Below, piece by piece: positions 1,248 to 60,933 of a DNA stretch of 64,000 nucleotides (the stretch's first letter is position 1; every line of letters begins with the position of its first letter). Origin of the DNA: Alphaproteobacteria bacterium (lineage in GTDB: Bacteria > Pseudomonadota > Alphaproteobacteria > JABAAW01 > JAHZMA01); the NCBI GenBank assembly GCA_965205905.1, contig CBDBHZ010000012.1, positions 79,528 through 143,527 of the forward strand, read 5' to 3'. Made by a program: the position numbers and the translations under genes. The notes under the pieces were generated by a model that saw only the letters and a list, made by a program, of their open reading frames with translations, ran no database searches and was not told the DNA's origin.

Positions 1248-1250
1248 CAG

Positions 1251-4195: not shown

Positions 4196-4222
4196 TGCGT
4201 TACGACACTATAATTCTGCCTA

Positions 4223-5176: not shown

Positions 5177-5191
5177 TTGTTTTTCCTTAAT

Positions 5192-18411: not shown

Positions 18412-18413
18412 AA

Positions 18414-22304: not shown

Positions 22305-22351
22305 TATTTATCTCCTCAATTCTTGCGATATTATGATATTCATGCCCATAT

Positions 22352-23581: not shown

Positions 23582-23673
23582 AGGCGCGTTTCCAATTTCA
23601 TAAAAACAGCTTGCGCCACCTTAAATGCACTTTAAAATGCAGATGGCACAGGCTGATGATAAACAGGTGATGC

Positions 23674-31771: not shown

Positions 31772-31807
31772 GATTTCTATCCTTTTAACATAGCGATAGA
31801 TAAAATT

Positions 31808-31836
31808 ACTATAATGTTTTTTTGGTTGGGGTGCAA
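31808..31836 (-). promoter_or_regulatory. Candidate sigma70 promoter of giant gene 2: -35 TTGCAC (31836-31831), 17-nt spacer containing an A7/T7 homopolymer (31817-31823), -10 TATAGT (31813-31808)
   Basis: Read on the minus strand: TTGCACcccaaccaaaaaaacatTATAGT, ~37 nt upstream of the ATG at 31771. Confidence 0.4.
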
Positions 31837-31877
31837 TAGTGGTTATGGAAATTTTGATAATATCAGCGAGATATAAC

Positions 31878-31905
31878 TTGACTATCATTTGATATTGCTT
31901 ATGAT
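31878..31905 (+). promoter_or_regulatory. Candidate sigma70 promoter of giant gene 3: -35 TTGACT (31878-31883), 16-nt spacer, -10 TATGAT (31900-31905)
   Basis: Read directly in the 166-bp divergent intergenic region; the ATG is at 31938. Confidence 0.4.
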
Positions 31906-42380: not shown

Positions 42381-42384
42381 CATC

Positions 42385-48300: not shown

Positions 48301-51300
48301 ATCGGCGCTGCCACCTTAACAGGCACGCTTGATGCCCACTTTTATGGTAATAAGGGTGGAATTGGTTCAAATGAAATAGGTGGCACATTTACCATGAGTA
48401 ATGAGGCATATTATTATTATGGTGTATTTGGTGCAGAAGGACTTTATGTTAACGTGAATAACATTGATTCCACTGTTAGCACCGATGAGGAATTCACCCA
48501 AAATAGCACAACTATGACCGCGCCAATAAAAGACAATCTTAATATAAATGGTCTAACAAGCTTTAATGATGATGCCCGCAAAGGCAAAAATAATAACGCT
48601 TTTAAAGTATCAACTTTTACAACCATGAAAGCAAATGATAATCAAACTATGGATATTAATAAATTTTCTGATGCTGTGGTTAGTGTTGATTTTTTAGGTG
48701 GTGGTGGTTATGACGATGGTTATATGGGTGATTTTAGACTTTATTTTGATGATAAAAAATATGACACCACTATGCAAGACTCAAGTAAAAGATGGCGTAA
48801 CACGAACTATGTTTATGTAGCTTATCCATCAGATATTGACACTCACCAGATTATGTTAGACAGATCTGTAGGGGAACGGAATTTTGGTGCTGCTTTTCGT
48901 CCCGGCTTTACTCCCGATTATATGGCAAAAGTTGGATTTTTCACTCCGTCCGGCTATAGAGAGACTATAGGTTTTGGCATCATCGGCTTTGAAACTGCTG
49001 CTAACAATATGCCGATGGCAAGCAGTGCTGTATTTGCTGGCAGAGGGCGGGGGCACTACATGGATAATGGCGGTCAGGTGAACACATATTTTGATGTCGC
49101 CGTCAATGTTGATTTTAACATGCGTGATATTGAATTCTTTGCTATTAATACATGTAGCGATGATTCGTTTTTATTTTGCAGGCAAGGTGCTCATTCGGAA
49201 AAGCATTACTTGGATATGATAGCAAATTTAAGCTATACAGCGAGTAATAACACCATCAGCGGTGGTATTACAACTGCAGGCGGTGGGCTTAATGAAACAT
49301 TAACAGGCACCATCGATGCCAGTTTTTATGGCACAAAAGGCACAGGGTATGATAATGCGGCAAAAGAATTTGGTGGCACATTTCTTGTGAGTAATAATCG
49401 CGAAGCCTATGGCGGTTGGTTTGGCACTAGAAGAGTAGCAAGCATTGCGAACCTAGCAACCACTATTACGACGCCTACACTTAATCAACATAATCTAACA
49501 AGCTTTGATGATGCTAACGGTGCCAATACAACCGGCACCGCCCTTCCAGCAATGGCTGTGCAGATAACAAAACAGAAAATGGGTGATAAAACAATTACCA
49601 CCGACAAAATAACGACACCTGTGGTTGAAGTGAGTTTTGGTAATTATGATGAATTTTACACTTATCATGTTAATGATGAATCAGATAGTGGTTGGGGTCG
49701 GCTTAACGCTCCTGTATTCGCTGGCTTTAACATCTATTGGGCTGATAAAAAATATAGCACAACTGGCGCAAATAATAACAGCGCTAATCACATCAAACAC
49801 ATAAATTTTTATGATAATAGCATGCCTACTACCAGCGCTGGTGAGACACCTTCTGAGATTCGCCTCAGCAGATACAATGGATGGGCTGCTACCTACGACG
49901 GCAAAGGACATTATTTTGGGTTTCTTCCTAAATATATGGTAAGAATTAACTGGATGTTGGATGAGAATGCATATGAAGCTGAGGGGCATGGTATCGCTGG
50001 TTTTGAAACTGATGGTAGCAATATTCCGAGCGTGGGGCATATCGAATTTAAAGGCAGAGGGCATGGACGCTATTATTCTAACTCAAGTGCCGAGTATTTT
50101 TACTTTGATATAACCGCCAATGTTAATTTTGCCAGCCGTTATGTAACATTAGAAAGCTCAAATACATGCAATAAAGCTTACCGTTACAATGCAGCATGTT
50201 CGAATGCAAGTGCGCGGCGAGAAGATTTTGATTTTAATGGGATATTAAGTTACAAGGCAGGTGAAAATAAAATGAGTGGTGGGGTTACCAACTTTGTTGA
50301 GTCATCAAAATTATTTGGCACAGCTGAAGCAAGATTTTACGGACCAGAGTTTCAAGAATTTGGTGGCACATTTGCCATGCAAAATACCGATGCAGCCTAT
50401 GTCGGCTATTTCGCTACCGAACGAATTACCAGTGTTATCCCAACTTCGCCTACTCCCTCCAGCAACAGCAACCATAACAATCTTGTTAGCTTTACTGATG
50501 ATGCCCGTAACGATACAAGCGGTAATAAATTTATAGCCATCGCCACCAACATCACCAAACATAGCGATGGCACAATTACCAATGGCGATTTCACCACTGC
50601 CGCGGTTGAATTAGCCTATGATGCTGATGGAGATTTCAGTGATGCCAGTCTCTATTTGCCTGATAGAAAATATAGCACAACCGCTAGCAGTGTTGGCACA
50701 AGCGATGATATTACTGATAACGCGCCTGTTGTTGCTGATAACACTCATGATACACCTGCTACTTTATTGTTATCTAGAAATACCGATAAATTTACTTTTA
50801 CGCCTGAATATATGGCAAGTCTTTATTGGCGGGTAACTAAAGATGCTTACGAGACCAGTGGCTATGCGATGACTGGTTTTAAAACTGATGGCAATAATTT
50901 TTATAGCCATGGTGGTGTTAAGTTCTCAGGTGGTGGGGAAATGAGCTATTCTAGTAGCAGCAGTAACATTACGAGTTCGTTTTCTACAACTGCCAATGTT
51001 AATTTTATAGATTATAATATCAGTCTAACAACAGACCAGAATGATAACAATAATGATTTTCTCAATCTTACGGGCGATTTAAGCTATAATCCTAAAGTAA
51101 ACCGCCTTACTGGCACGGTTAAAACGGCGGGCAATGATAAAAATCATGATGCGCTTGACGGCACAGAATTATCAGGCACCGCAGATGCCAGATTTTATGG
51201 TCCCGATCTAGAAGAATTAGGTGGTATATTTAATGTCAGCAATGCTGATGCAAGCGCCGTTGGTTGGTTCGGGTTAGAAAAACTTGGTGAAACTTTTACT

Positions 51301-52140
51301 AACTATCCTGAAATACCAACAACATTTAATGAACATAATCTAACCAGTTTTACTGATAATAATCGCAAAGGCACAACGGGTAATGCGCTAAAAGTGTCTT
51401 CGGTTGTCAGTTTAATCGATGGTAATGATATATTCACGGATGTGAGAAGTGACGGTTCGGTGGTTGTTTTTGATTATGATGATGGTGGTAATTTTGATAA
51501 CTTCACATTATATATTGATGATAAAAAATATGGCACGAGTAATGTTAATGGCGACGATATTAGTATTAGTGATACATCGCCTACTATTTATGGCGAGCAT
51601 CATGCGCTTCGCGAATTCTTTCTTGACAGACAGAGTGGTGCTTTTGGGTTTACGGCCAATTATATGGCGAGAGTTTATACGCTGACAGCATATAATTATT
51701 ATTACACGAACACAACTTACGCCATGACTGGTTTTGAAACGATGGGCAATAATATCCCTATGAATGGCGCTTCTGTTAACTTTTCAGGCAGGGGCGAGCT
51801 GAAATATCATGGCACTAATTTTAACACTGGTACTGCTTTTGATGTTACTGCCACTGTTAATTTTGAAACCCGCAATATCAACCTAGAAACCGACCATAAT
51901 GATGAGGAACGACGCTATCTCGATATGACGGGAAATTTAAGCTATGAACCTAATACAAACGCACTTACGGGCACATTTACAACCGTAGGCGATAGTAGCA
52001 ATGTTGAGAAGCCGTCATTAACAGGCACAATAGAAGCCCGCTTTTACGGGCCAGCGGCAGAAGAATTTGGTGGCACATTCAGCGCAAGCATACCTGAATC
52101 AGAGATAGGCTATATCGGCACGTTCGGCGCAAAAAAGTAA
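42385..52140 (+). CDS. Giant surface lipoprotein 4 (3251 aa): colinear paralog of gene 3, ~6 type-1 + 4 type-2 lobe modules
   Basis: Real start ATG at 42385 (MNKYFSIITLLMVSIFLNGCSTERGGSG..., RBS GAGGAA), 4 nt after the gene-3 stop. The track ORF start at 42337 is read-through. The first ~140 nt are near-identical to the gene-3 start. YYYGAFG markers fall at ~43495, 44421, 45295, 46295, 47350 and 48410. It lacks the counterpart of gene-3 module 2. Confidence 0.85.
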   Translation: MNKYFSIITLLMVSIFLNGCSTERGGSGIVSSGVVSDDVFIADSIKKIDTDGTYTTAAPYASLTAASADIDNQNDKIFTLQGLAVQGSQVTNYTASGSLGWNQEGETSITVATITAPAVSLTFDEDGMMSEVTAYFADKTYKYDIALDESVSASATLIDTKDITSGAQTDATIATLTVDRTEIFGFADNQGNALESNYMAYIGWNFERTQGDPNRLSSLSSDKDTAYSINGSMIAGIETASANIPSNGKVEFIGKGRGFYSHVDKGTASHATIFDVTTDVDFVAKTVDVNSKNTMRCSDKNKASSCTTALNGLNFGTTETFIYIIGDAVGFRGDVSLKANKTFTGTIDARFYGGRAQELGSTFAMRDETGGYYYGAFGGEREGVEASPLLDATIADETITLPNDVIAPLIPIDITTANPYENLTAIAGTDKRVVLNALSVYQDNTTQYIRTLNRDWATDADKVTTTSIVRLAGSAASLVFAGDNQGATLYAKEIYTNDDATIIVDRSTIFGFGSSYMAYISWDDIDNEFDNDNTGLTGEVVDISGKMLAGIETNDMNIPLTGEVSFNGKGRGTYGNVTTSEDTVFDITAEVDFVGKNVTTISSKNTCKAFDGAKCGVGGSDRLDFLNFTSAILSYADTDNATVNHISGAVHADGLAGTVDARFYGGATEEFGGTFALNDSSNYYYGVFGALRGGIAASTIFDNNIVDETVMLPADVTISTGNNLLNNTNDGDIVTLKVLSFYQNDSTDYTRAENRDWGTADERKTTSVVRMLGSAASLSFDGGGNISGVTAYLKDSTHTADPSKVKRGTDFFGFDSNYMAYISWDIDNHFDDDSEGLKARVVDSSGAMLAGIETTNLLDNTAGTVEFKGRGQGAYGDADDDYATIFDVTASVNFVDNNITIYTENTCQADDCTKQPENSLNFNTGAIGFADNSISKRNLNVKGMDGALDARFYGEKTREFGGTFGFASNLSYYYGAFGAERDGVVAPITLTTFNPNGANVSTINTAIAANNPSFNSLTDVVDAGDGNAFTMRALSAYEYDNTTYTRVSNNKEWSSKADKAQSIYIVGLSGAGASLTFGGDGNISGATAYLNGITYTTADLTVDRSTIFGFASHNMAYISWNLQKAESALDNESDYLYDFIFDDAGMMLAGVETAETVYDMDGDVETEGKILTFAAAEFTGKGKGTYGTVTNNVLTGYNTIFDVTASVDFEGRAVTIRSENTCEAVTNPDCTDNGVNRQDFLDLSTSALSFVSAPDIYGDSVAVNSISGDVALDSSNIFKGTLDARFYGYAGREFGGTFSLANASSYYYGAFGAKRETVYKFALDDAKIAAPDRRDAQFTLDAPDVSLHHAINDASATEDREFTMNALVVSANNYTDYARAPGEAWETSNRNKKFSLGRVAGSHISLTIDEDGKLSYMVARELGSGSLTDDGKGDQTLSAVDRNETNTSLDIINISRREEIFGFVMTDMVYIDWNRSNKLLAIGDPETEAFIGGNHGMMIAGIETDYAQMPTANAVVTYSDDDEEDDYDIGNDHYAIAVKFTGKGRGYYANLKTETGFHTIFDVTAHVDFVSEYITIDSGAPLKCTDVNDSSTCSASGLTGFYAIDDIYYNANDISVDIALENDYQFQGTLDARFYGDGAHKFAGTFAMSDSDNTRYYYGAFGAQRETAIEEFNFDKTLAEESGPKSTLDYLTVNQTPHESLHAVAVADGKNGFTTKALAVYQSNHKDYARVPNKAWDDASTDKDHNINLGKLSGAGATIVFDENGNISGFATYLSSNPYIATNIYTITVENPVSNSDVVSQNITDTDTPDDTSTGVMNLYRGESFFGFNSEYMAYIDWRVTRTFADLGDDTIDRSYDYSGAMIAGIETTDTKLSNNSSGIVNFKGRGRGSYYNTNTGIGEQTIFDVTAKLDFGNKNVTINSANTIACADFSNIGTCGISDIGEFSTGIISYRDNLMYSHSAHNNISGAVKANIGAATLTGTLDAHFYGNKGGIGSNEIGGTFTMSNEAYYYYGVFGAEGLYVNVNNIDSTVSTDEEFTQNSTTMTAPIKDNLNINGLTSFNDDARKGKNNNAFKVSTFTTMKANDNQTMDINKFSDAVVSVDFLGGGGYDDGYMGDFRLYFDDKKYDTTMQDSSKRWRNTNYVYVAYPSDIDTHQIMLDRSVGERNFGAAFRPGFTPDYMAKVGFFTPSGYRETIGFGIIGFETAANNMPMASSAVFAGRGRGHYMDNGGQVNTYFDVAVNVDFNMRDIEFFAINTCSDDSFLFCRQGAHSEKHYLDMIANLSYTASNNTISGGITTAGGGLNETLTGTIDASFYGTKGTGYDNAAKEFGGTFLVSNNREAYGGWFGTRRVASIANLATTITTPTLNQHNLTSFDDANGANTTGTALPAMAVQITKQKMGDKTITTDKITTPVVEVSFGNYDEFYTYHVNDESDSGWGRLNAPVFAGFNIYWADKKYSTTGANNNSANHIKHINFYDNSMPTTSAGETPSEIRLSRYNGWAATYDGKGHYFGFLPKYMVRINWMLDENAYEAEGHGIAGFETDGSNIPSVGHIEFKGRGHGRYYSNSSAEYFYFDITANVNFASRYVTLESSNTCNKAYRYNAACSNASARREDFDFNGILSYKAGENKMSGGVTNFVESSKLFGTAEARFYGPEFQEFGGTFAMQNTDAAYVGYFATERITSVIPTSPTPSSNSNHNNLVSFTDDARNDTSGNKFIAIATNITKHSDGTITNGDFTTAAVELAYDADGDFSDASLYLPDRKYSTTASSVGTSDDITDNAPVVADNTHDTPATLLLSRNTDKFTFTPEYMASLYWRVTKDAYETSGYAMTGFKTDGNNFYSHGGVKFSGGGEMSYSSSSSNITSSFSTTANVNFIDYNISLTTDQNDNNNDFLNLTGDLSYNPKVNRLTGTVKTAGNDKNHDALDGTELSGTADARFYGPDLEELGGIFNVSNADASAVGWFGLEKLGETFTNYPEIPTTFNEHNLTSFTDNNRKGTTGNALKVSSVVSLIDGNDIFTDVRSDGSVVVFDYDDGGNFDNFTLYIDDKKYGTSNVNGDDISISDTSPTIYGEHHALREFFLDRQSGAFGFTANYMARVYTLTAYNYYYTNTTYAMTGFETMGNNIPMNGASVNFSGRGELKYHGTNFNTGTAFDVTATVNFETRNINLETDHNDEERRYLDMTGNLSYEPNTNALTGTFTTVGDSSNVEKPSLTGTIEARFYGPAAEEFGGTFSASIPESEIGYIGTFGAKK
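42540..48440 (+). repeat. Intragenic tandem array of ~6 type-1 lobe modules in giant gene 4, followed by 4 type-2 modules to 52140
   Basis: Motif periodicity read from the translation. Boundaries are approximate. Confidence 0.65.
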
Positions 52141-52145: not shown

Positions 52146-52880
52146 GTGGATTTTAGCGATAAAGCTGTTTTAATTACGGGTGGCAGTGGCGGTATCGGCA
52201 AAGGGATTGCACAAAAATTTAAGCAAGCAGGTGCGAAAATTGCGTTGGTTGACTTAAAGTTTGAAGGTGAAACATTTGCTGATGCGTGTTTTACGGGCGA
52301 TATTACCGATGCGGATTATGTTCAAAATTTACCGCAAAAAACCATTGATGCGCTAGGCGGTTTAGATGTTATTGTCAATAATGCAGGTGTGATGCGGCGT
52401 GGTAAAATCACCGATAGCAGTGATGCTGATTTTGATGTTTCGGTTGCCGTCAATATCAAAGCGCCGTTTCAATTATGCCGTGCCGCCATTCCTTTGATGG
52501 CAAAAAATGGCGGTGGCGCGATTGTGAATATCGCCTCGTGCTGGGGGGTTCATGCGGGGGCAGACCACGCAATTTATTGTATGAGCAAAGCGGCATTGGC
52601 ATCTTTAACCCAATGTATGGGGCGCGACCATGCCCATCAAAATATTCGCATTAATGCCGTCTGCCCGAATGAGGTTGATACGCCAATGCTCCGCACGGGA
52701 TTTGAATTGCGCGGCTTTAACCCCGAAACTGCGATTGCTGAGTTGGGTAAGACTGTGCCGTTGGGGCGGGTTTCAACCCCTGACGATATTGCGGAAATTG
52801 TGCTGTTTTTGGCATCTGACCATGCGCGCTATATGTGCGGTTCATTGGTTGAAGTCAATGGTGGCAAGGCGGTAAGTTAA
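52146..52880 (+). CDS. SDR-family oxidoreductase (short-chain dehydrogenase/reductase)
   Basis: 244 aa with TGGSGGIGKGIA Rossmann motif, NNAG, and a catalytic S...Y..K (YCMSKAAL). It has a GTG start 5 nt after the giant-gene-4 stop. Confidence 0.75.
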   Translation: MDFSDKAVLITGGSGGIGKGIAQKFKQAGAKIALVDLKFEGETFADACFTGDITDADYVQNLPQKTIDALGGLDVIVNNAGVMRRGKITDSSDADFDVSVAVNIKAPFQLCRAAIPLMAKNGGGAIVNIASCWGVHAGADHAIYCMSKAALASLTQCMGRDHAHQNIRINAVCPNEVDTPMLRTGFELRGFNPETAIAELGKTVPLGRVSTPDDIAEIVLFLASDHARYMCGSLVEVNGGKAVS

Positions 52881-53671
52881 TGCAAGATTTACCGCAAGAA
52901 TTGCCGCAAGATTTAGTGGGCAAAGTGGCTTTGGTAACAGGTGGCAATAAAGGCATTGGGCTTGCGATTGCCGATGAATTGCAAGCGCAGGGCGCACAGG
53001 TTTTTACCGCGCAACGTACTGCAAATAACAGCAATGGTAGCGCAAATAACAGCAATGAGATTCAAGCTGATTTTACCGATAAAAATGCTCCGCAACAAGT
53101 CATTGATACAATCATTACGCAAACAGGCAGGCTTGATATTCTCATCAATAATGCAGGAATGATGCAAGAAGCATCGATTGAGGCAACCAGTCTTTTGATG
53201 TGGCAAAATATGCTAGATGTTAATTTAACTGCACCTTTTTTATTGATTCAAGCGGCGCTGCCTTACCTTAAAAAAAGCAAAAATGGCGGTGCGATTGTGA
53301 ATATTGGGTCGATTGAGGGGATTGGTGCGAACCCATCTCATGCTGGGTATGTGGCATCAAAAGCAGGTTTGCATGGTTTAACGCGTGCGGTGGCAGTTGA
53401 TTGTGGCGGTGATAATGTGCGTTGTAACATAGTCGCCCCCGGTTGGATTGATACTGACCTGAATAATGACTTTATTGCGGCGCAAGAAAACCCTGAAAAC
53501 TTTAAACAAAATATCGGTAAAATTCATCCGCTTGGCAGAACTGGTAACCCGCGGGAAGTGGCAAAATTGGTGGCGTTTTTAGCATCAGCGCAAAGCAGTT
53601 TTATCACGGGGCAGATTTATGTGATTGATGGTGGTAGAACCGCGAAATTGAGTTTACCAGTGCAAAGTTAA
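52880..53671 (+). CDS. SDR-family oxidoreductase
   Basis: 263 aa with TGGNKGIGLAIA, NNAG and YVASKAGL motifs. A TAATG overlap couples it to the upstream SDR. Confidence 0.75.
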   Translation: MQDLPQELPQDLVGKVALVTGGNKGIGLAIADELQAQGAQVFTAQRTANNSNGSANNSNEIQADFTDKNAPQQVIDTIITQTGRLDILINNAGMMQEASIEATSLLMWQNMLDVNLTAPFLLIQAALPYLKKSKNGGAIVNIGSIEGIGANPSHAGYVASKAGLHGLTRAVAVDCGGDNVRCNIVAPGWIDTDLNNDFIAAQENPENFKQNIGKIHPLGRTGNPREVAKLVAFLASAQSSFITGQIYVIDGGRTAKLSLPVQS

Positions 53672-53697: not shown

Positions 53698-55251
53698 TTA
53701 ACATTCCTGATTTAGAAAATCTGATGCCGGGATTTCTTGCTCGCGTTTGGCGATATAGGCAAGCAATTCTTCATTTTTCGCCTCGTCTAATTTTGGCTCC
53801 TGATATTCATTCAGCAATTTTTGAGCATATTTACGGGCGCGTTCATTGATTTCAACCGCGCCTTCGGCTTGCCATTGTTCGATTGAAAAATTATCAAATA
53901 AGTCTGGCATAAAATAAGCCCGCTGAAAATTGGCTTGCGTATGTTCATGCCCCAAATAATGCCCGCCCGGTCCAATATCTTTAATCGCCTTCATGCCTTC
54001 AGCAAAATCATCCCAACGCACCGATTCTCCCATTCGGTAAGCCATTGCCGCTTGTTCGGCATCTACCACAAATTTCGCCATAGAACAGTGCATTCCAGCC
54101 TCGTTCCAACCTGCTGAATGCCAGATATAATTTGCCCCCGCATGTAAGGTTGCCGATAGGGTGGTGGCAGATTCATAACCTGCTTGCGCGTCAAAAGTTT
54201 TTGCCCCGCCCAAATTAGACGAGCTACGCCATGGCACATTATAATAGCGCGCCATCTGCCCAATCATAAAATTCATCAGGCTGATTTCAGGAGTGCCCGC
54301 CATAGGTGCGCCCGAACGCATGGAAACAGTTGAAAGATAATGCCCGTAAATGGCAGGCGCGCCTTTGCGGATGACTTGCGTATAGGCAAGTGCAGAAAGT
54401 GCTTCGGCATTCAGCTGGGCAACGGTAGGTGCAACTGAAGCGGGCGTATTAGCACCGCCTAACACAAAAGGCGAGCATAGCACAGGCTGATTGCGTTTGC
54501 TAAATTCACGCATCGCGCCCAGCATCACCTCGTCCCAAACAAGGGGGGAATTGCCATTACAATTTCCTGTTACCACAGCATGATTTTCCATAAAATCTTT
54601 GCCGAATAAAATCGCGCACATATCCATCACATCTTCGGCATTTTTGCCACTGGTGGTCATGCCCATAAAAGTTTTATCAGAATATTTCATCGATGAATAA
54701 GTGATGCGTAAATGGCGCTGACTAACAGGGTGGTCAAAAGGCTCTACAATATGATGGGCAGAGCTATGAATGGCAGGTAACATCTGCGATAATTTGTGAA
54801 AATTACTCAAATCCTCCATCATAGGGTTGCGCCTAACATCATCTAAATCGCGCAAATAGGGCGCGCCCGTCATGGGGACAAAAATACTATTGCGCCCACC
54901 AACAGCAACATTATTTGCGGGATTGCGGGCATGATAGGTGATATTTGCAGGGATGGATTTTATGAGTTCACGCACCAAATCACGGTCTAAATAAACCATC
55001 TCGTCACGCACTTTTGCACCTGCTTTTTTCCAATCGGCAAGGGCGATATCATCACGGAATAACACGCCGATATTTTCTAAAATATCCATTGAGGCATTAT
55101 CGATACGTGTTACCTCTTCTTCATTCATAATATTGCAAAGGGGCAGTTTATTAACCAAAGTTGGCAGCATCGCCACATCAGGTGCGTTTCTTATAACGCG
55201 CCTTGCATCTCTACCGCCTAAACGGCTTTTTCTTGGTTCAGAATCAGACAT
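53698..55251 (-). CDS. MttB-superfamily (trimethylamine methyltransferase family, non-pyrrolysine) methyltransferase; candidate quaternary-amine (betaine-type) demethylase
   Basis: 517 aa. The N-terminal ..RKSRLGGRDARRVIR.. and overall length fit the MttB/MtgB family of TIM-barrel methyltransferases. It is the last gene of the operon that also encodes the betaine ABC importer. Confidence 0.65.
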   Translation of the reverse strand: MSDSEPRKSRLGGRDARRVIRNAPDVAMLPTLVNKLPLCNIMNEEEVTRIDNASMDILENIGVLFRDDIALADWKKAGAKVRDEMVYLDRDLVRELIKSIPANITYHARNPANNVAVGGRNSIFVPMTGAPYLRDLDDVRRNPMMEDLSNFHKLSQMLPAIHSSAHHIVEPFDHPVSQRHLRITYSSMKYSDKTFMGMTTSGKNAEDVMDMCAILFGKDFMENHAVVTGNCNGNSPLVWDEVMLGAMREFSKRNQPVLCSPFVLGGANTPASVAPTVAQLNAEALSALAYTQVIRKGAPAIYGHYLSTVSMRSGAPMAGTPEISLMNFMIGQMARYYNVPWRSSSNLGGAKTFDAQAGYESATTLSATLHAGANYIWHSAGWNEAGMHCSMAKFVVDAEQAAMAYRMGESVRWDDFAEGMKAIKDIGPGGHYLGHEHTQANFQRAYFMPDLFDNFSIEQWQAEGAVEINERARKYAQKLLNEYQEPKLDEAKNEELLAYIAKREQEIPASDFLNQEC

Positions 55252-55363
55252 TTTAATATCCTAATCATCTATCTTGGTTTGCGGGATTTTCGCAAATTCT
55301 AGAATGTGTAAAGAGGGGAGGTGCGATATAATGCAACGCCCCTCTTACACGAGAATAATAAAA

Positions 55364-56359
55364 TTATTTGGCTGCGCGTGCGGCTTTTAACCAACTATTA
55401 TATTCTTTTTTATTGGCTTTAATCCATTGTGCAACATGGCGGTCAATTTCTTTAGAGCTATCTTCGCCATCAGCAATCTTTTTATTTTGCGCTGAAACAT
55501 CATTGATGTCTAATTTGGCAACTTCAAAAAGCTTTTTAGCGGCAGGGTTTGCGTTCAAGAATTTATCAGTGGCAACCACAATGATATTATCAAGTGCGAA
55601 ACCAAGTTCTTTGCCCTTAAAGTTCGTTTCACCTGAACCACCATCGGGTAGAGAGCTATAAGGCACTGCAAGCCATTCCACATTTTTACCGGGTACCAAT
55701 ACACCAGATACCCAATAAGGTGTCCATGTATAATAAAGCGTATCTTTGCCTGATTTGATTTTTGCGATTGAATCAGCCATAATCGCATCATAAGCGCCTT
55801 GATTATGGTTAATCGTATCACGCAAACCGAACTCAGTTAAATGATGTTCAATCACGCGTTCGCAACCCCAACCGGGTGCACAGCCTGCCAAATCAGCTTT
55901 GCCATCACCATCAGAATCAAAACGCTTTGCGTTTTTAGGGTCTTTTAAGTCACCTAAATTTTTGATGCCTGAATCATAGGCAGATTTGTTGATAAGATAG
56001 CCTTGCAACGCGCCTTCAATGTAGGTGCCAATTTTTTCTAATTTTGCATCGCCACCAGATTCTTCAAAAAATGCGTGATGCAACGAATTCCAATGCACAG
56101 CAGTGAAATCAGCATCGCCTGTGCCTAATGCCAGATGAATGGTCTGATATTCTACTTCTTCTGGTCGGGCAACTTTGTAACCCAAATCTTTCAGCGCCTG
56201 AAATAAAATACGATGCTGAAAAATTTCTCCAGCGTTTGGTGCCATAACAGGGCGCACAGTTACGCCTTTACCGGGCTTGCTCGCTGCAAATGCTGATACT
56301 GACATAACAGATATGGCAATAACCGCAATCGCAGATTTTAATGATTTAATGTTTAACAT
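55364..56359 (-). CDS. proX: Glycine betaine/proline betaine ABC transporter substrate-binding protein
   Basis: 331 aa with a signal peptide (MLNIKSLKSAIAVIAISVMSVSAFA) and ProX/OpuAC-fold motifs. Confidence 0.75.
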   Translation of the reverse strand: MLNIKSLKSAIAVIAISVMSVSAFAASKPGKGVTVRPVMAPNAGEIFQHRILFQALKDLGYKVARPEEVEYQTIHLALGTGDADFTAVHWNSLHHAFFEESGGDAKLEKIGTYIEGALQGYLINKSAYDSGIKNLGDLKDPKNAKRFDSDGDGKADLAGCAPGWGCERVIEHHLTEFGLRDTINHNQGAYDAIMADSIAKIKSGKDTLYYTWTPYWVSGVLVPGKNVEWLAVPYSSLPDGGSGETNFKGKELGFALDNIIVVATDKFLNANPAAKKLFEVAKLDINDVSAQNKKIADGEDSSKEIDRHVAQWIKANKKEYNSWLKAARAAK

Positions 56360-56382
56360 AAATATTACTCCTAATAATACAA

Positions 56383-57351
56383 TTATGATTTAATTTTGGT
56401 CATGATTTTATTTTTTAATGGTAAAATCAAACCGATGGGACCACCTTGCCACCAATGGCGATGCCCCCTTTCTCGTCCTGATTGCCCCATTCCTTGGGTA
56501 ATCCTGTCAAGAACTATGGCGAGGATAACAATCCCCAAACCCCCTATCAATGCCTTACCAGCATCTAGCCTGCCCATAGCACGCAAAACCTCGTTACCAA
56601 GCCCGCGCACCGAAATCATCGATGCAATCACCACCATTGATAAGGATAGCATGATGGCTTGATTAACCCCTGCTAAAATTGTTGGAATGGCTAATGGTAA
56701 TTCCACTTTGAATAAAATTTGTCTCGGGTTTGCGCCAAATGCCGATGCCGCTTCCACAACGCTAGGGCTTACCCCACGAATGCCAAGTGATGTTAATCTA
56801 ATCAGTGGTGGCACTGAAAAAACCACCGTTACAATCACGCCCGAAACATTGCCAATGCCAATCAGCATCACCACAGGCACTAAATAGACAAAGGCTGGAA
56901 TGGTTTGCATGGTATCTAGCACAGGGCGCATGGCAGCATCACATTGATTGTTTTTGCCTGCCAATATGCCCAACGGCAAACCGATGATAAAACAGACCAA
57001 TACCGATACCATCACGATTGCCAATGTCGTCATCGCCAATTCCCATGCGATTGGGCTTAAAAAACCCAACATCATCAAACAGAAAAACACAATGATTGCC
57101 ACTTTACGACTGGCAAATTGCCATGCAAATAACGACAAAAACAAGATGGTGATCATGGGTGGCACAGCCAGTAAAAAACTATCGATTGAATTGATAATAT
57201 CGGTGAAAAAAAGTTTGAAGGGTTGAATGCTCTCGCGGTTTTCAATCGCCCATTGCTTGATGCCATCAGCACTTTCTTCTAAACCAAGGTCGGTATTCAC
57301 AAATGGATTGAGTAGATTCTCTAGCATGATATATACGCTTTCATTAAACAA
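56383..57351 (-). CDS. proW: Glycine betaine/proline ABC transporter permease
   Basis: 322 aa membrane protein with an ABC TMD (EAA-like loop ..SLGIRGVSPSVVEAASAFGANPRQ..). Confidence 0.8.
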   Translation of the reverse strand: MFNESVYIMLENLLNPFVNTDLGLEESADGIKQWAIENRESIQPFKLFFTDIINSIDSFLLAVPPMITILFLSLFAWQFASRKVAIIVFFCLMMLGFLSPIAWELAMTTLAIVMVSVLVCFIIGLPLGILAGKNNQCDAAMRPVLDTMQTIPAFVYLVPVVMLIGIGNVSGVIVTVVFSVPPLIRLTSLGIRGVSPSVVEAASAFGANPRQILFKVELPLAIPTILAGVNQAIMLSLSMVVIASMISVRGLGNEVLRAMGRLDAGKALIGGLGIVILAIVLDRITQGMGQSGRERGHRHWWQGGPIGLILPLKNKIMTKIKS

Positions 57352-58408
57352 TATCCCCCTTAATTGCCAGCAACAGCCTATCTTTGCTAATCACGCCTAC
57401 AACCTTACCATCATCACTGACAATAATCGGCTTATCAGACGTTACGGAAAGATTTATCAGCGCACTTAACGGGGCATCAGGGCTGGCTTGTGGACAGCTT
57501 TTGACTGTAAGTTTCTTATGTTTCTTTTCATATTTAGAAAGTGGCTCTAAGATTTTACATGCTGATACCAATTCCAATTTAGAAATGCCTGCCACAAAAT
57601 CCGATACATAATCATCGCAAGGATTGGTAACAATATCTTCGGGGGTGCCAACTTGCACCAACACACCATCTTTCATAATGGCAATGCGGTCGCCAATCCG
57701 AATGGCTTCATCTAAATCATGGGTAATGAACAGAGTTGTCTTTTTCATCTTTGCCGAAAGCGCCATAAATCTATCTTGTAATTGCCGTCTAATCAAGGGG
57801 TCAAGCGCGGAAAATGGCTCATCCATCAATAAAATGGAAGGGTCTGCGGCAATGGCGCGCGCCAAACCAACCCTTTGTTGCATCCCGCCCGAAAGCTCAT
57901 CAGGATATTTTTGGTGCCAACCATCTAATTCTACTTCGGCAATTGCGCGCATCGCGGTTTTATGCCTATCAGCGGTAGAAAAGCCACGCACTTCTTGCGA
58001 AAACGCAACATTATCCAACACATTTTTATGGGGCATCAATGCCATGCTTTGAAACACCATGCCGATTTTTTCCGCCCTTAATGCGCGCAAATTTGATGCG
58101 GATAAATCACCGATATTCTGTCCTTCAATATGGACACTGCCAATGGTTGGCTCAATCAAGCGGTTAATATGGCGGATAAGAGTGGATTTCCCGGAGCCCG
58201 AAAGCCCCATAATGCAGAATATTTCACCGCGGGCAACATCAAAACTGGCATCTTGCACGCCCACCACACAATCATAGCGGTCGCGCACCTCAATTTTGCT
58301 CAAGCCCTCATTCTGAATGGCTTGCAATGCTTTATCAGCATTTTTACCGAAAATCTTCCATAGATTACGGCATTGGATAACATTATTTTCAGACTTATTT
58401 TCTGTCAT
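57344..58408 (-). CDS. proV: Glycine betaine/proline ABC transporter ATP-binding protein with tandem C-terminal CBS domains
   Basis: 354 aa with Walker A (GLSGSGKST), signature (LSGGMQQRV) and Walker B (LLMDEPFSALD) motifs, plus a CBS pair at the C-terminus. Confidence 0.85.
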   Translation of the reverse strand: MTENKSENNVIQCRNLWKIFGKNADKALQAIQNEGLSKIEVRDRYDCVVGVQDASFDVARGEIFCIMGLSGSGKSTLIRHINRLIEPTIGSVHIEGQNIGDLSASNLRALRAEKIGMVFQSMALMPHKNVLDNVAFSQEVRGFSTADRHKTAMRAIAEVELDGWHQKYPDELSGGMQQRVGLARAIAADPSILLMDEPFSALDPLIRRQLQDRFMALSAKMKKTTLFITHDLDEAIRIGDRIAIMKDGVLVQVGTPEDIVTNPCDDYVSDFVAGISKLELVSACKILEPLSKYEKKHKKLTVKSCPQASPDAPLSALINLSVTSDKPIIVSDDGKVVGVISKDRLLLAIKGDIV

Positions 58409-58456
58409 TTTATCCCTCTTATTATTATTCGTGTCTATTTTATAGCAGATATTCTA

Positions 58457-58485
58457 TTGACGTGTCAAATTATTTTATTTATGAT
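58457..58485 (+). promoter_or_regulatory. Candidate sigma70 promoter of the dapA-family operon: -35 TTGACG (58457-58462), 17-nt spacer, -10 TATGAT (58480-58485)
   Basis: Read directly in the proV/dapA-like divergent intergenic region; the ATG is at 58517 with a GAGGGGA RBS. Confidence 0.35.
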
Positions 58486-58516
58486 GGGTTTATATCAAAT
58501 ATTGAGGGGACATAGA

Positions 58517-59437
58517 ATGCCTATTTTTCAGTTTGAAGGAATTTACACGCCCATCATTACGCCATTCTTTGAAGATGGCAGTATCAATTACGATGCATTG
58601 GCGGATATGGTGGATTATCTGCTTGCCCATAAGGTGAATGGCATTATTGCGGGCGGTTCAACCGGCGAGAATTACGCCAAAAATACCGCCGAACGGATTG
58701 AGGCTGCCACATTTATTTGCAAGCGTATCAATAAAAAAATCCCTTTCATGGTGGGCACTGGCACAATGATGACCTCTGATTCGGTGGCACTTGCCACTGC
58801 CGCCAAGCAAATGAAAGCAGATGCCATTATGATTGCTTCCCCGCCTTATGCTGTGCCAACCGACCGCGAAAATGCTCTGAATGCCCTGCATATTGATAAA
58901 GCTGCCGATTTGCCGATTATGCTCTATAACTACCCGGGACGCACGGGCATTAATATGGGTGAAGAATTTTTAGATAAAATAGGGCGGTCGCGTAATTTTT
59001 GTGGCATTAAGGAATCTTCAGGTGATATTAACCGTTTGCATTTATTGGCGCGTGACTACCCGCATATCGGGCTTGCTTGCGGTATGGACGACCAAGCGTT
59101 AGAATTTTTCGCATGGGGTTCAAAATGTTGGGTCTGTGGCGGTTCAAATTTTCTGCCCGATGAGCATCAGGCATTATATCAAGCTTGTGTGAAGCAAAAT
59201 GACTTCACCAAAGGGCGCAAGATAATGTCGGCGATGCTGCCTTTGATGGGGATATTAGAACAAAGTGGCAAATTTATCCAAAATATCAAATATGGGGTGC
59301 AGTTAAACGGCATTGATGCAGGGGCGATGCGCCCACCATTAAAGCATCTGAACAAAGATGATAAGCGCGTGTTAGAACAGGTGTTAAAAATCTTAAAACC
59401 AACCATTGCCAAGATTCAAGCAGGGGATAAATCATGA
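58517..59437 (+). CDS. DapA/NAL-family (dihydrodipicolinate synthase-like) lyase/dehydratase
   Basis: Real start MPIFQFEGIYTPIITPF... at 58517. The track ORF 58373.. carries a 48-codon intergenic read-through. Class I aldolase-family motifs (GSTGE, Schiff-base Lys region ..YNYPGRTG..). Confidence 0.75.
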   Translation: MPIFQFEGIYTPIITPFFEDGSINYDALADMVDYLLAHKVNGIIAGGSTGENYAKNTAERIEAATFICKRINKKIPFMVGTGTMMTSDSVALATAAKQMKADAIMIASPPYAVPTDRENALNALHIDKAADLPIMLYNYPGRTGINMGEEFLDKIGRSRNFCGIKESSGDINRLHLLARDYPHIGLACGMDDQALEFFAWGSKCWVCGGSNFLPDEHQALYQACVKQNDFTKGRKIMSAMLPLMGILEQSGKFIQNIKYGVQLNGIDAGAMRPPLKHLNKDDKRVLEQVLKILKPTIAKIQAGDKS

Positions 59438-60930
59438 GCTTACTTACCACCCAAGAATATCAAACCATTGCCGATAATTTAAATTTGCCTAACACAGCCT
59501 TCATCAATGGCGGCTATCGCCCCGCAAAATCGGGTGCGGTATTTACCAGCATCAACCCCGCAACAGGCAAAAAATTAACCGATATTGCCGCATGTGATGC
59601 CCAAGATGTTGATGAGGCAGTTATCAAAGCACGCGAAGCATTCGATGATGGGCGGTGGTGCAAATTACACCCCAGTGAGCGCAAAAATATTCTCATCACA
59701 TTATGTAAATTACTCACCCGCAATGCGCGCGAATTGGCGGTGATGGAAAGCATGGATAGCGGCAAGCCGATTTATGATTGCGAGAGCGTTGATGTGCCAG
59801 AAATGATTGAGTGCATCAAATGGCATGCCGAATTGATTGATAAGATTTACGATAGTGTCGCGCCGGTATCTGATGAGCATATCGCGATGATATTGCGTGA
59901 GCCGATTGGTGTGGTGGGCTTGGTATTGCCATGGAATTTTCCGCTATTGATGATGGCATGGAAGATTGCACCTGCATTGGCGGCAGGCTGTTCGGTGATT
60001 GTAAAGCCCGCCGAAGAGACGAGCTTAACAGCGTTGCGCGTGGCGGAATTATGCCACGAGGCAGGCATTCCTAAAGGCGTTCTGAATATAGTGCCGGGCT
60101 TGGGCGCACAAGCGGGCGAGGCATTGGGGCGGCATCATGATATTGATATGATTTCGTTCACAGGTTCAACAGTAACGGGCAAGAAATTTTTAGAATATTC
60201 AGCGCAATCAAATTGCAAGGAAGTGGTGCTAGAGATGGGCGGTAAAAATCCGTGTATTGTGATGGATGATGCGGAAAACTTAGATGCGGTGGCACAGCAT
60301 ATCGTCAATGGTGCATTTTGGAATATGGGCGAAAATTGTTCGGCAATATCGCGTTTGATTGTGCATAAAAACATTAAAGAAGATTTGCTGAAACGGGTGG
60401 AACATCATATTCAGCACTGGAATATTGGCAATCCGCTAGACCCCGAAACGCGTTTGGGGGCATTGGTTTCTGATGCACATTGCAAAAAAGTATCGGGCTA
60501 TATCAACAAGGCAAAGACTATCCGCGCAGGTGGCAAGATAGAAAAAAATTATGTTGAGGCAACTTTGATTGAGCTTGCCAGCAATCAAGATATTCTGGCG
60601 CGTGAAGAAATTTTTGGACCCGTGTTAAGCATTCTAACGATTACCAGTTTTGATGAAGCGATATTGGTTGCCAATGATACCAATTACGGGCTAACCGCCG
60701 CGCTTTTCACCAGCAATATCAAAAATGCCATTCGTGGCGGACGGGCATTGCAGGCAGGCACGGTTACCATCAACAGCTATGGTGAGGGCAATATCACCAC
60801 GCCATTTGGCGGTTACAAGCAATCAGGTTTTGGTGGGCGCGATAATTCAATTCATGCCCATGACCAATATACGCAAATCAAAACTTTGTGGATTGATTTG
60901 ACCGATGATGCCGATAGCAATGTGGATTAG
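59434..60930 (+). CDS. NAD(P)+-dependent aldehyde dehydrogenase (candidate 2-oxoglutarate-semialdehyde dehydrogenase)
   Basis: 498 aa ALDH with a catalytic Cys region (..ENCSAISRLIVH..) and Glu motif (LEMGGKNP). An ATGA overlap couples it to the upstream DapA-family gene. Confidence 0.8.
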   Translation: MSLLTTQEYQTIADNLNLPNTAFINGGYRPAKSGAVFTSINPATGKKLTDIAACDAQDVDEAVIKAREAFDDGRWCKLHPSERKNILITLCKLLTRNARELAVMESMDSGKPIYDCESVDVPEMIECIKWHAELIDKIYDSVAPVSDEHIAMILREPIGVVGLVLPWNFPLLMMAWKIAPALAAGCSVIVKPAEETSLTALRVAELCHEAGIPKGVLNIVPGLGAQAGEALGRHHDIDMISFTGSTVTGKKFLEYSAQSNCKEVVLEMGGKNPCIVMDDAENLDAVAQHIVNGAFWNMGENCSAISRLIVHKNIKEDLLKRVEHHIQHWNIGNPLDPETRLGALVSDAHCKKVSGYINKAKTIRAGGKIEKNYVEATLIELASNQDILAREEIFGPVLSILTITSFDEAILVANDTNYGLTAALFTSNIKNAIRGGRALQAGTVTINSYGEGNITTPFGGYKQSGFGGRDNSIHAHDQYTQIKTLWIDLTDDADSNVD

Positions 60931-60933
60931 AAT

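Follow-up and report, generated by a model that had tools for sequence, protein, structure and literature searches.

Organization of the locus

Within the 64,000-nucleotide stretch of DNA analysed here (the window), the ORFs coding for ProV, ProW, ProX and a protein of the MttB family are arranged head to tail along the minus strand between positions 53698 and 58408 (Table 1), confirming the gene order given in a preliminary description of the locus. An 8-nt overlap joins proV to proW, and 23 nt separate proW from proX. The 112-nt spacer between proX and mttB folds at the RNA level into a stable stem-loop (−32.2 kcal/mol, z = −4.69, with none of 200 shuffled sequences equally stable), and no clear T-run was found 3′ of the stem. 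Given this gap with its strong stem-loop and no clear T-run, co-transcription of mttB with proVWX is plausible, the hairpin possibly being a partial terminator or an element that stabilises the mRNA. The direct adjacency of proX and mttB noted earlier is present here and is lineage-specific, as it recurs only in locus L001, the spacer of which also forms a hairpin but differs in sequence; other loci cluster the same genes in other orders.

The importer and mttB belong to a module of nine genes, whose other members are the divergent genes coding for a DHDPS-family protein, an aldehyde dehydrogenase (ALDH) and a FAD-dependent oxidase (58517-62319) and two convergent genes coding for short-chain dehydrogenase/reductase (SDR) oxidoreductases (52146-53671). 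The preliminary description had recognised the importer, mttB and the DHDPS/ALDH/oxidase triad but not the upstream SDR genes, and it had placed downstream a triad that is in fact transcribed divergently from proV. Sigma-70-like hexamers, which are consensus matches only, occur on both strands of the proV/DHDPS-family intergenic region (58457-58485, plus; 58498-58469, minus). Most relatives carry a GntR regulator gene at this position; the window contains none. Comparison with orthologues makes ATG 58517 the most likely start of the DHDPS-family gene, in preference to the TTG at 58373 given by the ORF finder. The true start of proW may be an ATG located 8 codons into the ORF.

Table 1. Features of the nine-gene module, with protein identity to the plasmid pB orthologue of Cereibacter sphaeroides and occurrence among 80 loci carrying MttB orthologues.
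Feature	Position	Strand	Family or property	Identity to pB (%)	Loci (of 80)
SDR oxidoreductase 1, 244 aa	52146..52880	+	PF13561/PF00106	67	36
SDR oxidoreductase 2, 263 aa	52880..53671	+	PF13561/PF00106	56	35
Non-pyrrolysine MttB-superfamily methyltransferase, 517 aa, RSP_4008-type orthogroup	53698..55251	-	PF06253
proX-mttB spacer with stable stem-loop	55252..55363	-	RNA fold
proX / hpbJ-type periplasmic betaine-binding protein, 331 aa	55364..56359	-	PF04069, NF008334	62.5
proW / hpbI-type permease, 322 aa from TTG start	56383..57351	-	PF00528, NF008196	68
proV / hpbH-type ABC ATPase, betaine importer, 354 aa	57344..58408	-	PF00005, TIGR01186	66
Divergent intergenic (promoter) region, proV / DHDPS-family gene	58409..58516	.	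108 bp, AT-rich
DHDPS/DapA-family protein, hpbG-type, 306 aa	58517..59437	+	PF00701	63	62
Aldehyde dehydrogenase, hpbF-type, 498 aa	59434..60930	+	PF00171	66	62
FAD-dependent oxidoreductase, DAO family, hpbE-type, 461 aa	60934..62319	+	PF01266	57	65

A betaine importer and a non-pyrrolysine MttB homologue

ProX carries a Sec signal peptide (...SAFA/AS), matches PF04069 (OpuAC, E = 8e-37) and scored 420.8 bits against the ProX equivalog NF008334 (cutoff 215). It aligns with E. coli ProX (1r9l/1r9q) at 316.9 bits, and the betaine-binding residues Trp65, His69, Trp140, Gly141, Cys142 and Trp188 of the latter correspond to W90, H94, W164, G165, C166 and W212, all identical, which bears out the earlier proposal of a betaine-type binding protein. 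Because E. coli-type ligand residues bind glycine betaine and proline betaine alike, their exact conservation counts against the reading preferred below. ProV matches PF00005 (112.7 bits) and scored 355.7 bits against the proV profile TIGR01186 (cutoff 326.6); the match spans positions 6-294 of the 363 of the model, indicating that the C-terminal regulatory part is short. ProW matches PF00528 and reached 349 bits against NF008196, under its cutoff of 439. Compared to the ProU (ProVWX) system of E. coli, the gene order and the ProX ligand contacts are the same, whereas the window importer is embedded in a catabolic cluster, its ProV is short at the C-terminus relative to the proV model, and its ProW and ProV score under the cutoffs of the E. 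coli equivalogs.

mttB is an uninterrupted ORF whose product matches PF06253 over profile positions 2-500 of 500 (707 bits, E = 9.5e-213). With no more than 284.5 bits against TIGR02369, the pyrrolysine-MttB equivalog, the protein remains below the cutoff of 525 and is thus a non-pyrrolysine member; Leu347 aligns with Pyl334, the pyrrolysine position, in agreement with what had been proposed. Its matches in the PDB are 4yyc (477 bits), MtgB (2qne/9yce, 357 bits) and pyrrolysine-containing MttB (7xcl, 100 bits). MtgB, the glycine betaine:corrinoid methyltransferase of Desulfitobacterium hafniense (PMC13080624), shares the fold family and the Leu at the pyrrolysine position, and its carboxylate ligands R312 and H348 align with R342 and H378. 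However, the two proteins are only about 39% identical, the organism of the window is aerobic with neither a corrinoid protein nor MtgA encoded next to mttB, and the cation-π aromatics Y97 and F356 of MtgB are replaced by T128 and G386. This Thr/Gly pair is found in all 71 orthologues, 70-71 of which keep W341, W377 and W382, and 73 positions invariant in the orthogroup are unlike both MtgB and 4yyc. The MtgB Tyr is kept in 4yyc and in a paralogue, 39% identical, that adjoins a dimethylglycine-dehydrogenase-like gene.

Among the scanned window ORFs of at least 120 aa, none was found to code for a B12-binding, pterin-binding or RamA-like protein, and the six reading frames of the window contained no B12 motif, as the preliminary description had remarked for the corrinoid partner. 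This is no anomaly, since both Eubacterium limosum (PMC8604678) and the aerobic Ruegeria pomeroyi (PMC12478193) are documented to have MttB-family genes that lie away from the gene of a shared corrinoid protein. In R. pomeroyi DSS-3, also an Alphaproteobacterium, the pfam06253 proteins of the MtgBCD system depend on an unlinked MtgC and on the pterin-binding methyltransferase MtgD; up to seven pfam06253 paralogues of unassigned substrate are present per genome (PMC12478193). The proteins induced there by glycine betaine, SPO2108 and SPO2134 (MtgB2), are encoded in other genomic contexts than the mttB gene of the window, SPO2134 being next to a gene for an outer-membrane protein.

Orthology to the hpb cluster and conserved synteny

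Each of the nine proteins shares 56-74% identity with a product of one contiguous cluster on plasmid pB of Cereibacter (Rhodobacter) sphaeroides 2.4.1, which thus holds orthologues of the hpbHIJ importer, oxidase, ALDH, DHDPS-family, two SDR and MttB genes. The window differs from it in lacking hpbD, the GntR and GbdR-like regulators, the Rieske genes hpbB1C1 and the flavin demethylase gene hpbA, and in having mttB directly behind proX. Besides the pB cluster, the closest known systems include the tHyp-B/Pro-B pathway reported for Pelagibaca bermudensis and Paracoccus denitrificans (Zhao et al. 2013, Nature; Kumar et al. 2014, mBio). In R. sphaeroides, hpbJ/I/H are RSP_3998/3999/4000 and hpbD, coding for a hydroxyproline-betaine 2-epimerase, is RSP_4007; these genes are induced 7.5-11-fold by L- or D-proline betaine, an hpbD mutant no longer grows on D-proline betaine, and rsHpbD has its best kcat/Km with tHyp-B (Kumar et al. 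2014, PMC3950512). The gene order on pB fits these tags exactly and assigns 4002-4004 to the DHDPS-family, ALDH and oxidase genes and 4008 to MttB. Neither the MttB-family gene nor the SDRs have a part in the published pathway, and the word 'methyltransferase' is absent from the main text (PMC3950512).

We examined 80 loci with MttB orthologues of 75-84% identity, whose neighbours were found by tblastn. The triad is present in 62-65 of them, so that the link to the DapA/ALDH/FAD-oxidoreductase genes, the tentative part of a preliminary description that is supported overall, is the part that held best. A GbdR-like GlxA regulator gene occurs in 45 loci, and SDR 1, where found, always adjoins the MttB or oxidase genes. 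An hpbD orthologue is found in 28 loci, in 21 of these directly behind the MttB gene and within 150 bp. The neighbouring enolase-family protein matches 4e8g/4izg/4j1o at 605 bits and 2pmq/4h2h at 527 bits; 4j1o is pdHpbD. In four loci, an OYE+FAD flavoprotein resembling N-methylproline demethylases is encoded 14-17 bp behind the MttB gene; its architecture is the one that HpbA, the flavin-dependent N-methylproline demethylase, would be expected to have. Nine loci, and R. sphaeroides as well, carry Rieske genes together with the MttB gene, which argues that MttB is no simple replacement for the Rieske enzyme.

The DHDPS-family protein (PF00701, 170.7 bits) reached 179 bits against the true-DapA equivalog, under its cutoff of 206, and is only about 25-33% identical to the Sinorhizobium plasmid homologues. 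The ALDH (PF00171, 521.6 bits) matched no NCBIfam equivalog at cutoff (PuuC, 515.7 of 850; GucD, 350 of 770), and the oxidase (PF01266, 143.9 bits) has L-pipecolate oxidase as best NCBIfam match (145.5 bits, cutoff 600) and no PDB relative at E ≤ 1e-10, nor any close relative that has been characterised. The reactions assigned to the DHDPS-family protein and to the oxidase, a predicted cis-4-hydroxy-D-proline oxidase, thus rest on context; the ALDH is predicted to be an α-ketoglutarate semialdehyde dehydrogenase. The DAAO, DHDPS and ALDH triad is the established signature of conversion of c4Hyp to 2-oxoglutarate, used also by tHyp-B-growing organisms (PMC4113996), from which we took our logic linking DHDPS family to function. 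The two SDRs, of which SDR 1 matches the uncharacterised SDR 3uxy (332.8 bits), are members of the module with no place in the pathway proposed below.

Predicted role of the MttB-family protein in betaine breakdown

The nine genes make up a cluster, widely conserved in bacteria, for the import and breakdown of hydroxyproline/proline betaine, in which the MttB-type enzyme probably takes the first methyl group. After import by ProVWX (HpbHIJ), the betaine would be held in the MttB-family protein through its carboxylate by Arg342 and His378, and one N-methyl group would move to a Co(I) corrinoid protein of the MtgC type, encoded elsewhere in the genome, and from there to tetrahydrofolate. N-methyl-hydroxyproline would thereby be formed with no use of O2, a step performed in the published pathway by the Rieske oxygenase HpbB1C1. 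A second demethylation and a C2 epimerisation would follow, by enzymes encoded outside the window, in which hpbD, an hpbA-like gene and a corrinoid- or pterin-binding partner are all missing. The DAO-family flavoprotein would then oxidise the resulting cis-4-hydroxy-D-proline, the DHDPS-family protein would carry out a deamination, and a further oxidation by the ALDH would yield 2-oxoglutarate.

We give modest credence, a little above even, to the MttB-family protein being a (hydroxy)proline-betaine methyltransferase that depends on a corrinoid protein whose gene lies elsewhere. This predicted activity would be ordinary in kind and of modest novelty as an assignment, giving a role in betaine demethylation to an MttB type previously left unassigned. 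MtpB of E. limosum, a non-pyrrolysine member that demethylates proline betaine with the shared MtqC/MtqA/RamQ (PMC8604678), offers a parallel, since it acts on a cyclic betaine and its gene lies apart from that of its corrinoid protein, MtqC; E. limosum is, however, a strict anaerobe that directs the methyl group to acetogenesis, and any likeness in specificity would be an analogy. Against the preferred reading, P. denitrificans deprived of both Rieske demethylases does not grow on proline betaine, so that no MttB route compensated where tested, in a strain that may or may not carry an MttB orthologue.

A possible but rather unlikely variant is that the enzyme acts on another methylated compound of the same regulon, such as another stereoisomer or a ring-hydroxylated proline betaine, N-methyl-hydroxyproline or another algal betaine. 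The SDRs would then prepare or follow its product, and the published hpb scheme would be only part of the work of the module. The conservation of SDRs that have no published role, the orthogroup-specific invariant positions and the Rieske/MttB co-occurrence, which suggests non-redundant substrates, all fit this view. Yet HpbD, which was tested on Hyp-B and Pro-B isomers, is the commonest immediate downstream neighbour, the characterised non-pyrrolysine MttB members act on quaternary amines, and no positive evidence was found for any particular alternative compound.

That the protein is instead an aerobic MtgB, with ProVWX importing glycine betaine and the triad serving another purpose, we consider improbable. 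Glycine betaine is the sole substrate experimentally tied to pfam06253 in aerobic Alphaproteobacteria, and both the ProX pocket and the strong MtgB match with its carboxylate ligands would suit it. The loss of both aromatics throughout the orthogroup nevertheless argues otherwise, as Y97A and F356L substitutions raise the Km of MtgB several hundred-fold (PMC13080624). The Tyr-keeping paralogue next to the dimethylglycine-dehydrogenase-like gene is a distant one, no dimethylglycine or sarcosine catabolic genes are found in the window, the neighbour of MtgB2 differs, and most loci link the orthogroup to hpbD and hpbEFG-type genes. Very improbable, finally, is a mere osmoprotectant importer with mttB as a decayed or functionally unrelated passenger. 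The family assignments of ProX, ProV and ProW fit ProU-type importers, salt also induces the hpb transporter genes of P. denitrificans and R. sphaeroides, and a hairpin stands between proX and mttB. However, the C-terminal part of the proV model has no counterpart in ProV, the intact MttB protein is strongly conserved over many genera with invariant active-site residues, and the linkage of mttB to catabolic genes survives repeated rearrangements.

The betaine importer and the MttB-family protein

The preliminary description proposed a minus-strand succession of proV, proW, proX and an MttB-like gene, and ORFs matching the corresponding family profiles were found at these positions (see table of features). 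The proV and proW ORFs overlap by 8 nt and 23 nt separate proW from proX. The 112-nt spacer between proX and mttB is predicted to form a stable hairpin (-32.2 kcal/mol, z = -4.7) that is not followed by a clear T-run, leaving co-transcription of mttB with the importer genes plausible only.

Features of the window with their coordinates and principal matches
Feature	Coordinates	Strand	Match
Homogentisate block	297-7587		
Giant ORF	7807-17109	+	
Oxidase set and TRAP transporter	17191-24801	-	
Giant ORF	25938-29426	-	
Giant ORF	29555-31888	-	
Giant ORF	31938-42380	+	
Giant ORF	42337-52140	+	
Two SDR genes	52146-53671		
SDR1	52146-52880		PDB 3uxy, 332.8 bits
MttB-family protein, 517 aa	53698-55251	-	PF06253, E=9.5e-213, profile positions 2-500 of 500
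proX-type binding protein	55364-56359	-	NF008334 equivalog, 420.8 bits (cutoff 215); PF04069, E=8e-37
proW-type permease	56383-57351	-	ORF
proV-type ABC ATPase	57344-58408	-	TIGR01186 proV, 355.7 bits, over cutoff
DHDPS-family gene, likely start ATG	58517		
Type IIG restriction-modification enzyme, cut by window end	62455-64000	+	

The betaine class attributed to ProX withstood a ligand-class check, as the protein scored above the NF008334 cutoff, matched E. coli ProX (1r9l/1r9q) with 316.9 bits, and carried W90, H94, W164, G165, C166 and W212 in alignment with the identical residues W65, H69, W140, G141, C142 and W188 of E. coli ProX, which we take to be ligand-binding residues (Trp box and His/Gly/Cys carboxylate contacts). 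Judging from this alignment, the Trp box and the His/Gly/Cys contacts of a ProU-type binding protein are present in the window ProX. The TIGR01186 match of ProV stops at model position 294 of 363, no CBS domain was matched in it by Pfam, and P. inhibens and R. sphaeroides have orthologues of about the same short length; this catabolic importer may have a reduced form of the osmosensing C-terminal module of ProU/OpuA ATPases.

The assignment of the fourth gene to the MttB family was confirmed by PF06253, whose TIM-barrel domain is full-length in the window protein, and PDB searches returned 4yyc, 2qne/9yce and 7xcl. The ORF is unbroken and contains no in-frame UAG. Leu347 aligns with the 'X' given at position 334 of the Methanosarcina-type MttB structure 7xcl (pyrrolysine, replaced by Lys in 7xcm); MtgB, the glycine betaine:corrinoid methyltransferase, likewise carries Leu317 at the pyrrolysine position. 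Since the protein also scored 284.5 bits against TIGR02369, the pyrrolysine-MttB equivalog, under its cutoff of 525, it is by sequence a non-pyrrolysine member, in agreement with the preliminary description.

In MtgB, R312 and H348 bind the carboxylate of glycine betaine, Y97 and F356 bind the trimethylammonium group by cation-pi contacts, and replacement of Y97 or F356 by a non-aromatic residue raises the Km several hundred-fold (PMC13080624). The carboxylate pair corresponds to R342 and H378 of the window protein, both invariant in 71 of 71 orthologues. In contrast, the aromatic pair is replaced by T128 and G386 in the window protein and in 70-71 of the 71 orthologues, whereas the Tyr is retained by the S. 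meliloti structure 4yyc and by a 39%-identical paralogue adjoining a dimethylglycine-dehydrogenase-like gene. Trp341, Trp377 and Trp382, close in sequence to these active-site positions, are invariant in the orthogroup. This pattern fits a carboxylate betaine bulkier than glycine betaine and does not alone single out hydroxyproline betaine. No dimethylglycine/sarcosine catabolism gene and no mtgC or mtgA was found in the window, and of the 80 orthologous loci only 5 have a DMGDH-like gene within 10 kb of the MttB orthologue.

Correspondence to the hpb cluster and conservation of the neighbourhood

Divergent from proV, across an AT-rich spacer of 108 bp, lie genes for a DHDPS/DapA-family protein, for which the ORF finder gave a TTG start in place of the likely ATG, an ALDH and a DAO-family FAD oxidoreductase. 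Two SDR genes converge on the 3' end of mttB, and the base composition of the module region agrees with that of the remainder of the window. All nine proteins share 56-74% identity with products of a cluster on plasmid pB of Cereibacter (Rhodobacter) sphaeroides 2.4.1, annotated in the order MttB-family, enolase, SDR, SDR, followed on the opposite strand by FAD oxidoreductase, ALDH, DHDPS-family and GntR, and then ProV, ProW, ProX and GlxA. ProV, ProW and ProX, 62-68% identical to their pB counterparts, correspond by gene order to RSP_4000, RSP_3999 and RSP_3998 (HpbH, HpbI and HpbJ).

Kumar et al. 2014 (PMC3950512) described RSP_3998/3999/4000 as hpbJ/hpbI/hpbH and RSP_4007 as hpbD, and reported that these hpb genes are induced 7.5-11-fold by L- or D-proline betaine, that D-proline betaine does not support growth of the hpbD mutant, and that the kcat/Km of rsHpbD is highest with the hydroxyproline betaine tHyp-B. 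Counting genes from ProX as 3998 reaches the enolase at exactly 4007, which assigns 4002-4004 to the DHDPS-family, ALDH and oxidase genes, 4005-4006 to the SDRs and 4008 to the MttB-family gene. The matching of the names hpbE, hpbF and hpbG to genes follows gene order and is to be taken as our assumption. The enolase-superfamily neighbour matched 2pmq/4h2h, presumably Pelagibaca bermudensis HpbD, with 527 bits and 4e8g/4izg/4j1o with 605 bits. HpbD is 4-hydroxyproline betaine 2-epimerase/proline betaine racemase, and 4j1o is its structure from Paracoccus denitrificans (PMC3950512).

Three enzymes, namely an oxidase of the DAAO family, a dehydratase/deaminase of the DHDPS family and an ALDH, convert cis-4-hydroxy-D-proline to 2-oxoglutarate, also in organisms growing on tHyp-B (PMC4113996). 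This triad is complete and contiguous in the window and orthologous to the pB genes (57-66% identity). Given this orthology and the triad, the window is an hpb locus in compact form, devoid of regulators, hpbD, the Rieske demethylase and the flavin demethylase. In the window, tblastn detected no HpbD homologue (E<=1e-5), although one is present in R. sphaeroides and in 28 of the 80 loci, no homologue of the Rieske oxygenase HpbB1C1 or the flavin enzyme HpbA, and no match to the regulators of the hpb locus. HpbD may be encoded elsewhere in the source genome; HpbB1C1 (RSP_3978/3979) and HpbA (RSP_3861) are likewise unlinked from the cluster in R. sphaeroides (PMC3950512). A 2026 P. inhibens paper on algal betaine and H2O2 was rejected as a source for the cluster's function, for its subject is sarcosine oxidases, and mttB serves there as no more than a generic marker.

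The 80 loci, drawn from one-genome-per-species bacterial assemblies, belong nearly all to Rhodobacterales and Hyphomicrobiales and encode MttB orthologues 75-84% identical to the window protein. They were searched with the window proteins and with representatives of other recurrent neighbours.

Recurrent genes within 10 kb of the MttB orthologue
Gene	Loci (of 80)
DAO-family oxidase	65
ALDH	62
DHDPS-family gene	62
GntR regulator	59
GbdR-like GlxA regulator	45
Two SDRs	35-36
Enolase-superfamily gene (HpbD-type)	28
ProVWX genes	8-11
Rieske oxygenase	9
OYE+FAD flavoprotein	6

Gene order differs between lineages and the set nevertheless remains clustered, a pattern expected of a functional module. 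The link to the DapA-family/ALDH/FAD-oxidoreductase genes that the preliminary description had suggested is borne out by these frequencies (62-65 loci) and by the R. sphaeroides pB cluster, thereby sharpening the earlier reading into an hpb-type module for (hydroxy)proline betaine uptake and catabolism. The closest relative, an alphaproteobacterial MAG (L001), has all nine genes with the same proX-mttB adjacency; the best match among GTDB representatives, at 84% identity, is an alphaproteobacterial MAG. The module is often plasmid-borne in roseobacters, and in Paracoccus versutus the same DHDPS-ALDH-oxidase block adjoins betaine ABC transporters. A Rhizobium plasmid region for which only the DHDPS and ALDH genes are listed also has an OYE-type flavoprotein gene. 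On a Leisingera methylohalidivorans plasmid (locus L082), two short tblastn fragments of hpbD (15653-16056, 65-74% identity, different frames) are all that lies of this gene between the MttB and SDR genes, which suggests an hpbD pseudogene; a few kb off, this plasmid also has a LysR-Rieske pair and a second enolase-family gene.

The reactions of the window oxidase and DHDPS-family protein are predictions assigned by context. Our searches returned no close characterised relative of either and no PDB match for the oxidase, and the ~25-33% identity of the DHDPS-family protein to Sinorhizobium plasmid homologues speaks neither for nor against close kinship with the hydroxyproline-pathway enzyme of Sinorhizobium. 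In annotation, 'DapA', 'PuuC-like ALDH' and 'FAD oxidoreductase' at this locus would denote hydroxyproline-pathway enzymes rather than lysine or putrescine ones. PDB searches with the SDRs returned generic or uncharacterised SDRs only, with no substrate indicated; C4 oxidation-reduction or epimerisation by the pair is a guess. The close solved relative of SDR1, 3uxy, is labelled only 'short-chain dehydrogenase/reductase SDR', so that a structure of this unexplained pathway component already exists without an assigned function.

A putative corrinoid-dependent demethylase

In the published pathway, the first methyl group is removed by HpbB1C1 and the second by the flavoprotein HpbA (PMC3950512). 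The main text of that paper makes no mention of the MttB-family gene, and no later assignment was found in the literature searched. Its position is suggestive: in 21 loci it directly precedes hpbD (of the 28 loci with the enolase-superfamily gene, 21 have it no more than 150 bp from the end of the MttB gene), in 4 loci it directly precedes an HpbA-like demethylase (with the OYE+FAD flavoprotein 14-17 bp behind it in 4 of 6), and in the window and L001 it directly follows the importer genes. Characterised non-pyrrolysine members use a quaternary amine as methyl donor and a Co(I) corrinoid protein as acceptor (PMC13080624, PMC8604678), and the substrate of E. limosum MtpB is proline betaine (PMC8604678). 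Position, family chemistry and active site together suggest that the imported cyclic betaine is demethylated by the MttB protein, which would remove the first methyl group via a corrinoid. We consider the corrinoid-dependent first demethylase of the (hydroxy)proline betaine module to be its most likely role.

Among cyclic betaines, linkage to the hydroxyproline-specific triad makes tHyp-B or cHyp-B more likely than plain proline betaine, since catabolism of the latter ends in PutA (PMC3950512); activity on both is quite possible. R. sphaeroides and 9 of the loci have Rieske genes in addition to the MttB gene, arguing that the two demethylases are not simple alternatives; they may differ in substrate, stereoisomer or O2 regime. 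Loss of both Rieske enzymes ends growth of P. denitrificans on proline betaine (PMC3950512). A more elaborate proposal, which we regard as rather unlikely, is that the RSP_4008-type MttB and the two SDRs form an undescribed B12-dependent, O2-independent hydroxyproline-betaine branch in aerobic marine and rhizosphere Alphaproteobacteria, in which MttB would pass methyl groups via shared MtgC/MtgD to folate and the SDRs would invert or oxidise the 4-hydroxyl, thereby funnelling stereoisomers into the oxidase/deaminase/ALDH route. Such a branch would extend the cobalamin-dependent processes of ocean and soil to a second abundant osmolyte of algae and plants.

As the preliminary description had remarked, no corrinoid partner is visible in the window. 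Pfam detected no B12-binding, pterin-binding or RamA-type protein among ORFs of at least 120 aa, short ORFs nested within larger genes being excluded, and a scan of all six frames found no B12 motif. A motif screen revealed a B12-binding protein within 10 kb of MttB in 0 of the 80 loci, indicating that the orthogroup is consistently a corrinoid 'orphan' at its loci. The only candidates that this motif yielded, in a screen covering the window and 1,399 neighbouring ORFs, were GTPases of the UreG/CobW type and SDRs, which were dismissed as false positives. The missing partner is no anomaly, as unlinked partners are usual for the family. In E. limosum, the genes for MtpB, MtcB and MtyB lie in clusters apart from those for the shared MtqC (the single corrinoid protein), MtqA (methyltransferase) and RamQ (activase) (PMC8604678). 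In the aerobe Ruegeria pomeroyi, glycine betaine demethylation requires the unlinked corrinoid protein MtgC and the pterin-binding methyltransferase MtgD, which also serve as parts of a split methionine synthase (PMC12478193). The glycine-betaine-induced R. pomeroyi paralogues SPO2108 and SPO2134 differ from the window gene in context; SPO2133 is an outer-membrane protein.

Non-pyrrolysine MttB proteins are numerous in aerobic Alphaproteobacteria, with up to seven pfam06253 paralogues without known substrate per genome, and only glycine betaine has so far been tied to them (PMC12478193). The window and its relatives supply a specific, cheaply testable hypothesis for one paralogue, the unassigned MttB gene that in the experimentally studied hpb cluster adjoins the gene for the Hyp-betaine epimerase. 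If correct, it would provide an O2-independent alternative to the Rieske oxygenase for the first demethylation, help to explain the presence of both systems in facultative anaerobes such as R. sphaeroides, and extend the osmolyte-recycling reactions that require cobalamin. Both superfamily and pathway cluster are known; the novelty lies in an MttB member without prior assignment rather than in a new type of system, and its value is as an annotation aid and a good experimental target.

Other genes of the window

The five giant ORFs are Thr/Ala/Gly/Ser-rich paralogues, three of them of 3100-3480 aa. Their sole Pfam match is a C-terminal TbpB_B_D domain (transferrin-binding protein B beta-barrel); four of the five begin with a lipoprotein-type signal sequence ending in Cys, BLAST self-matches at offsets of ~300 aa reveal internal repetition, and an 'ARFYGP..EELGGTF' motif occurs at their C-termini. 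They resemble giant surface lipoproteins assembled from tandem TbpB-like modules rather than NRPS/PKS. The possibility that they are NRPS/PKS with the flanking SDRs as tailoring enzymes was thus rejected, all the more since the SDRs accompany the MttB cluster in 35-36 loci.

Between these ORFs, a glycolate/D-lactate-oxidase-like set (a protein with FAD_binding_4 and FAD-oxidase_C, a second FAD_binding_4 protein and a CCG/4Fe-4S protein) adjoins a TRAP transporter with DctP, an unusually long DctQ of 409 aa and DctM. Directly behind the FAD oxidoreductase gene lies the gene for the N-terminal 515 aa of a type IIG/MmeI-like restriction-modification enzyme, with matches to MmeI_Mtase, HSDR_N, N6_Mtase and Eco57I. 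The homogentisate block comprises homogentisate 1,2-dioxygenase, fumarylacetoacetase, an MBL-fold protein, an FAD aromatic hydroxylase and a GST, with a PaaX-like regulator and a thioesterase beside it. Since the dioxygenase and the hydroxylase need O2, the host is very likely an aerobe.
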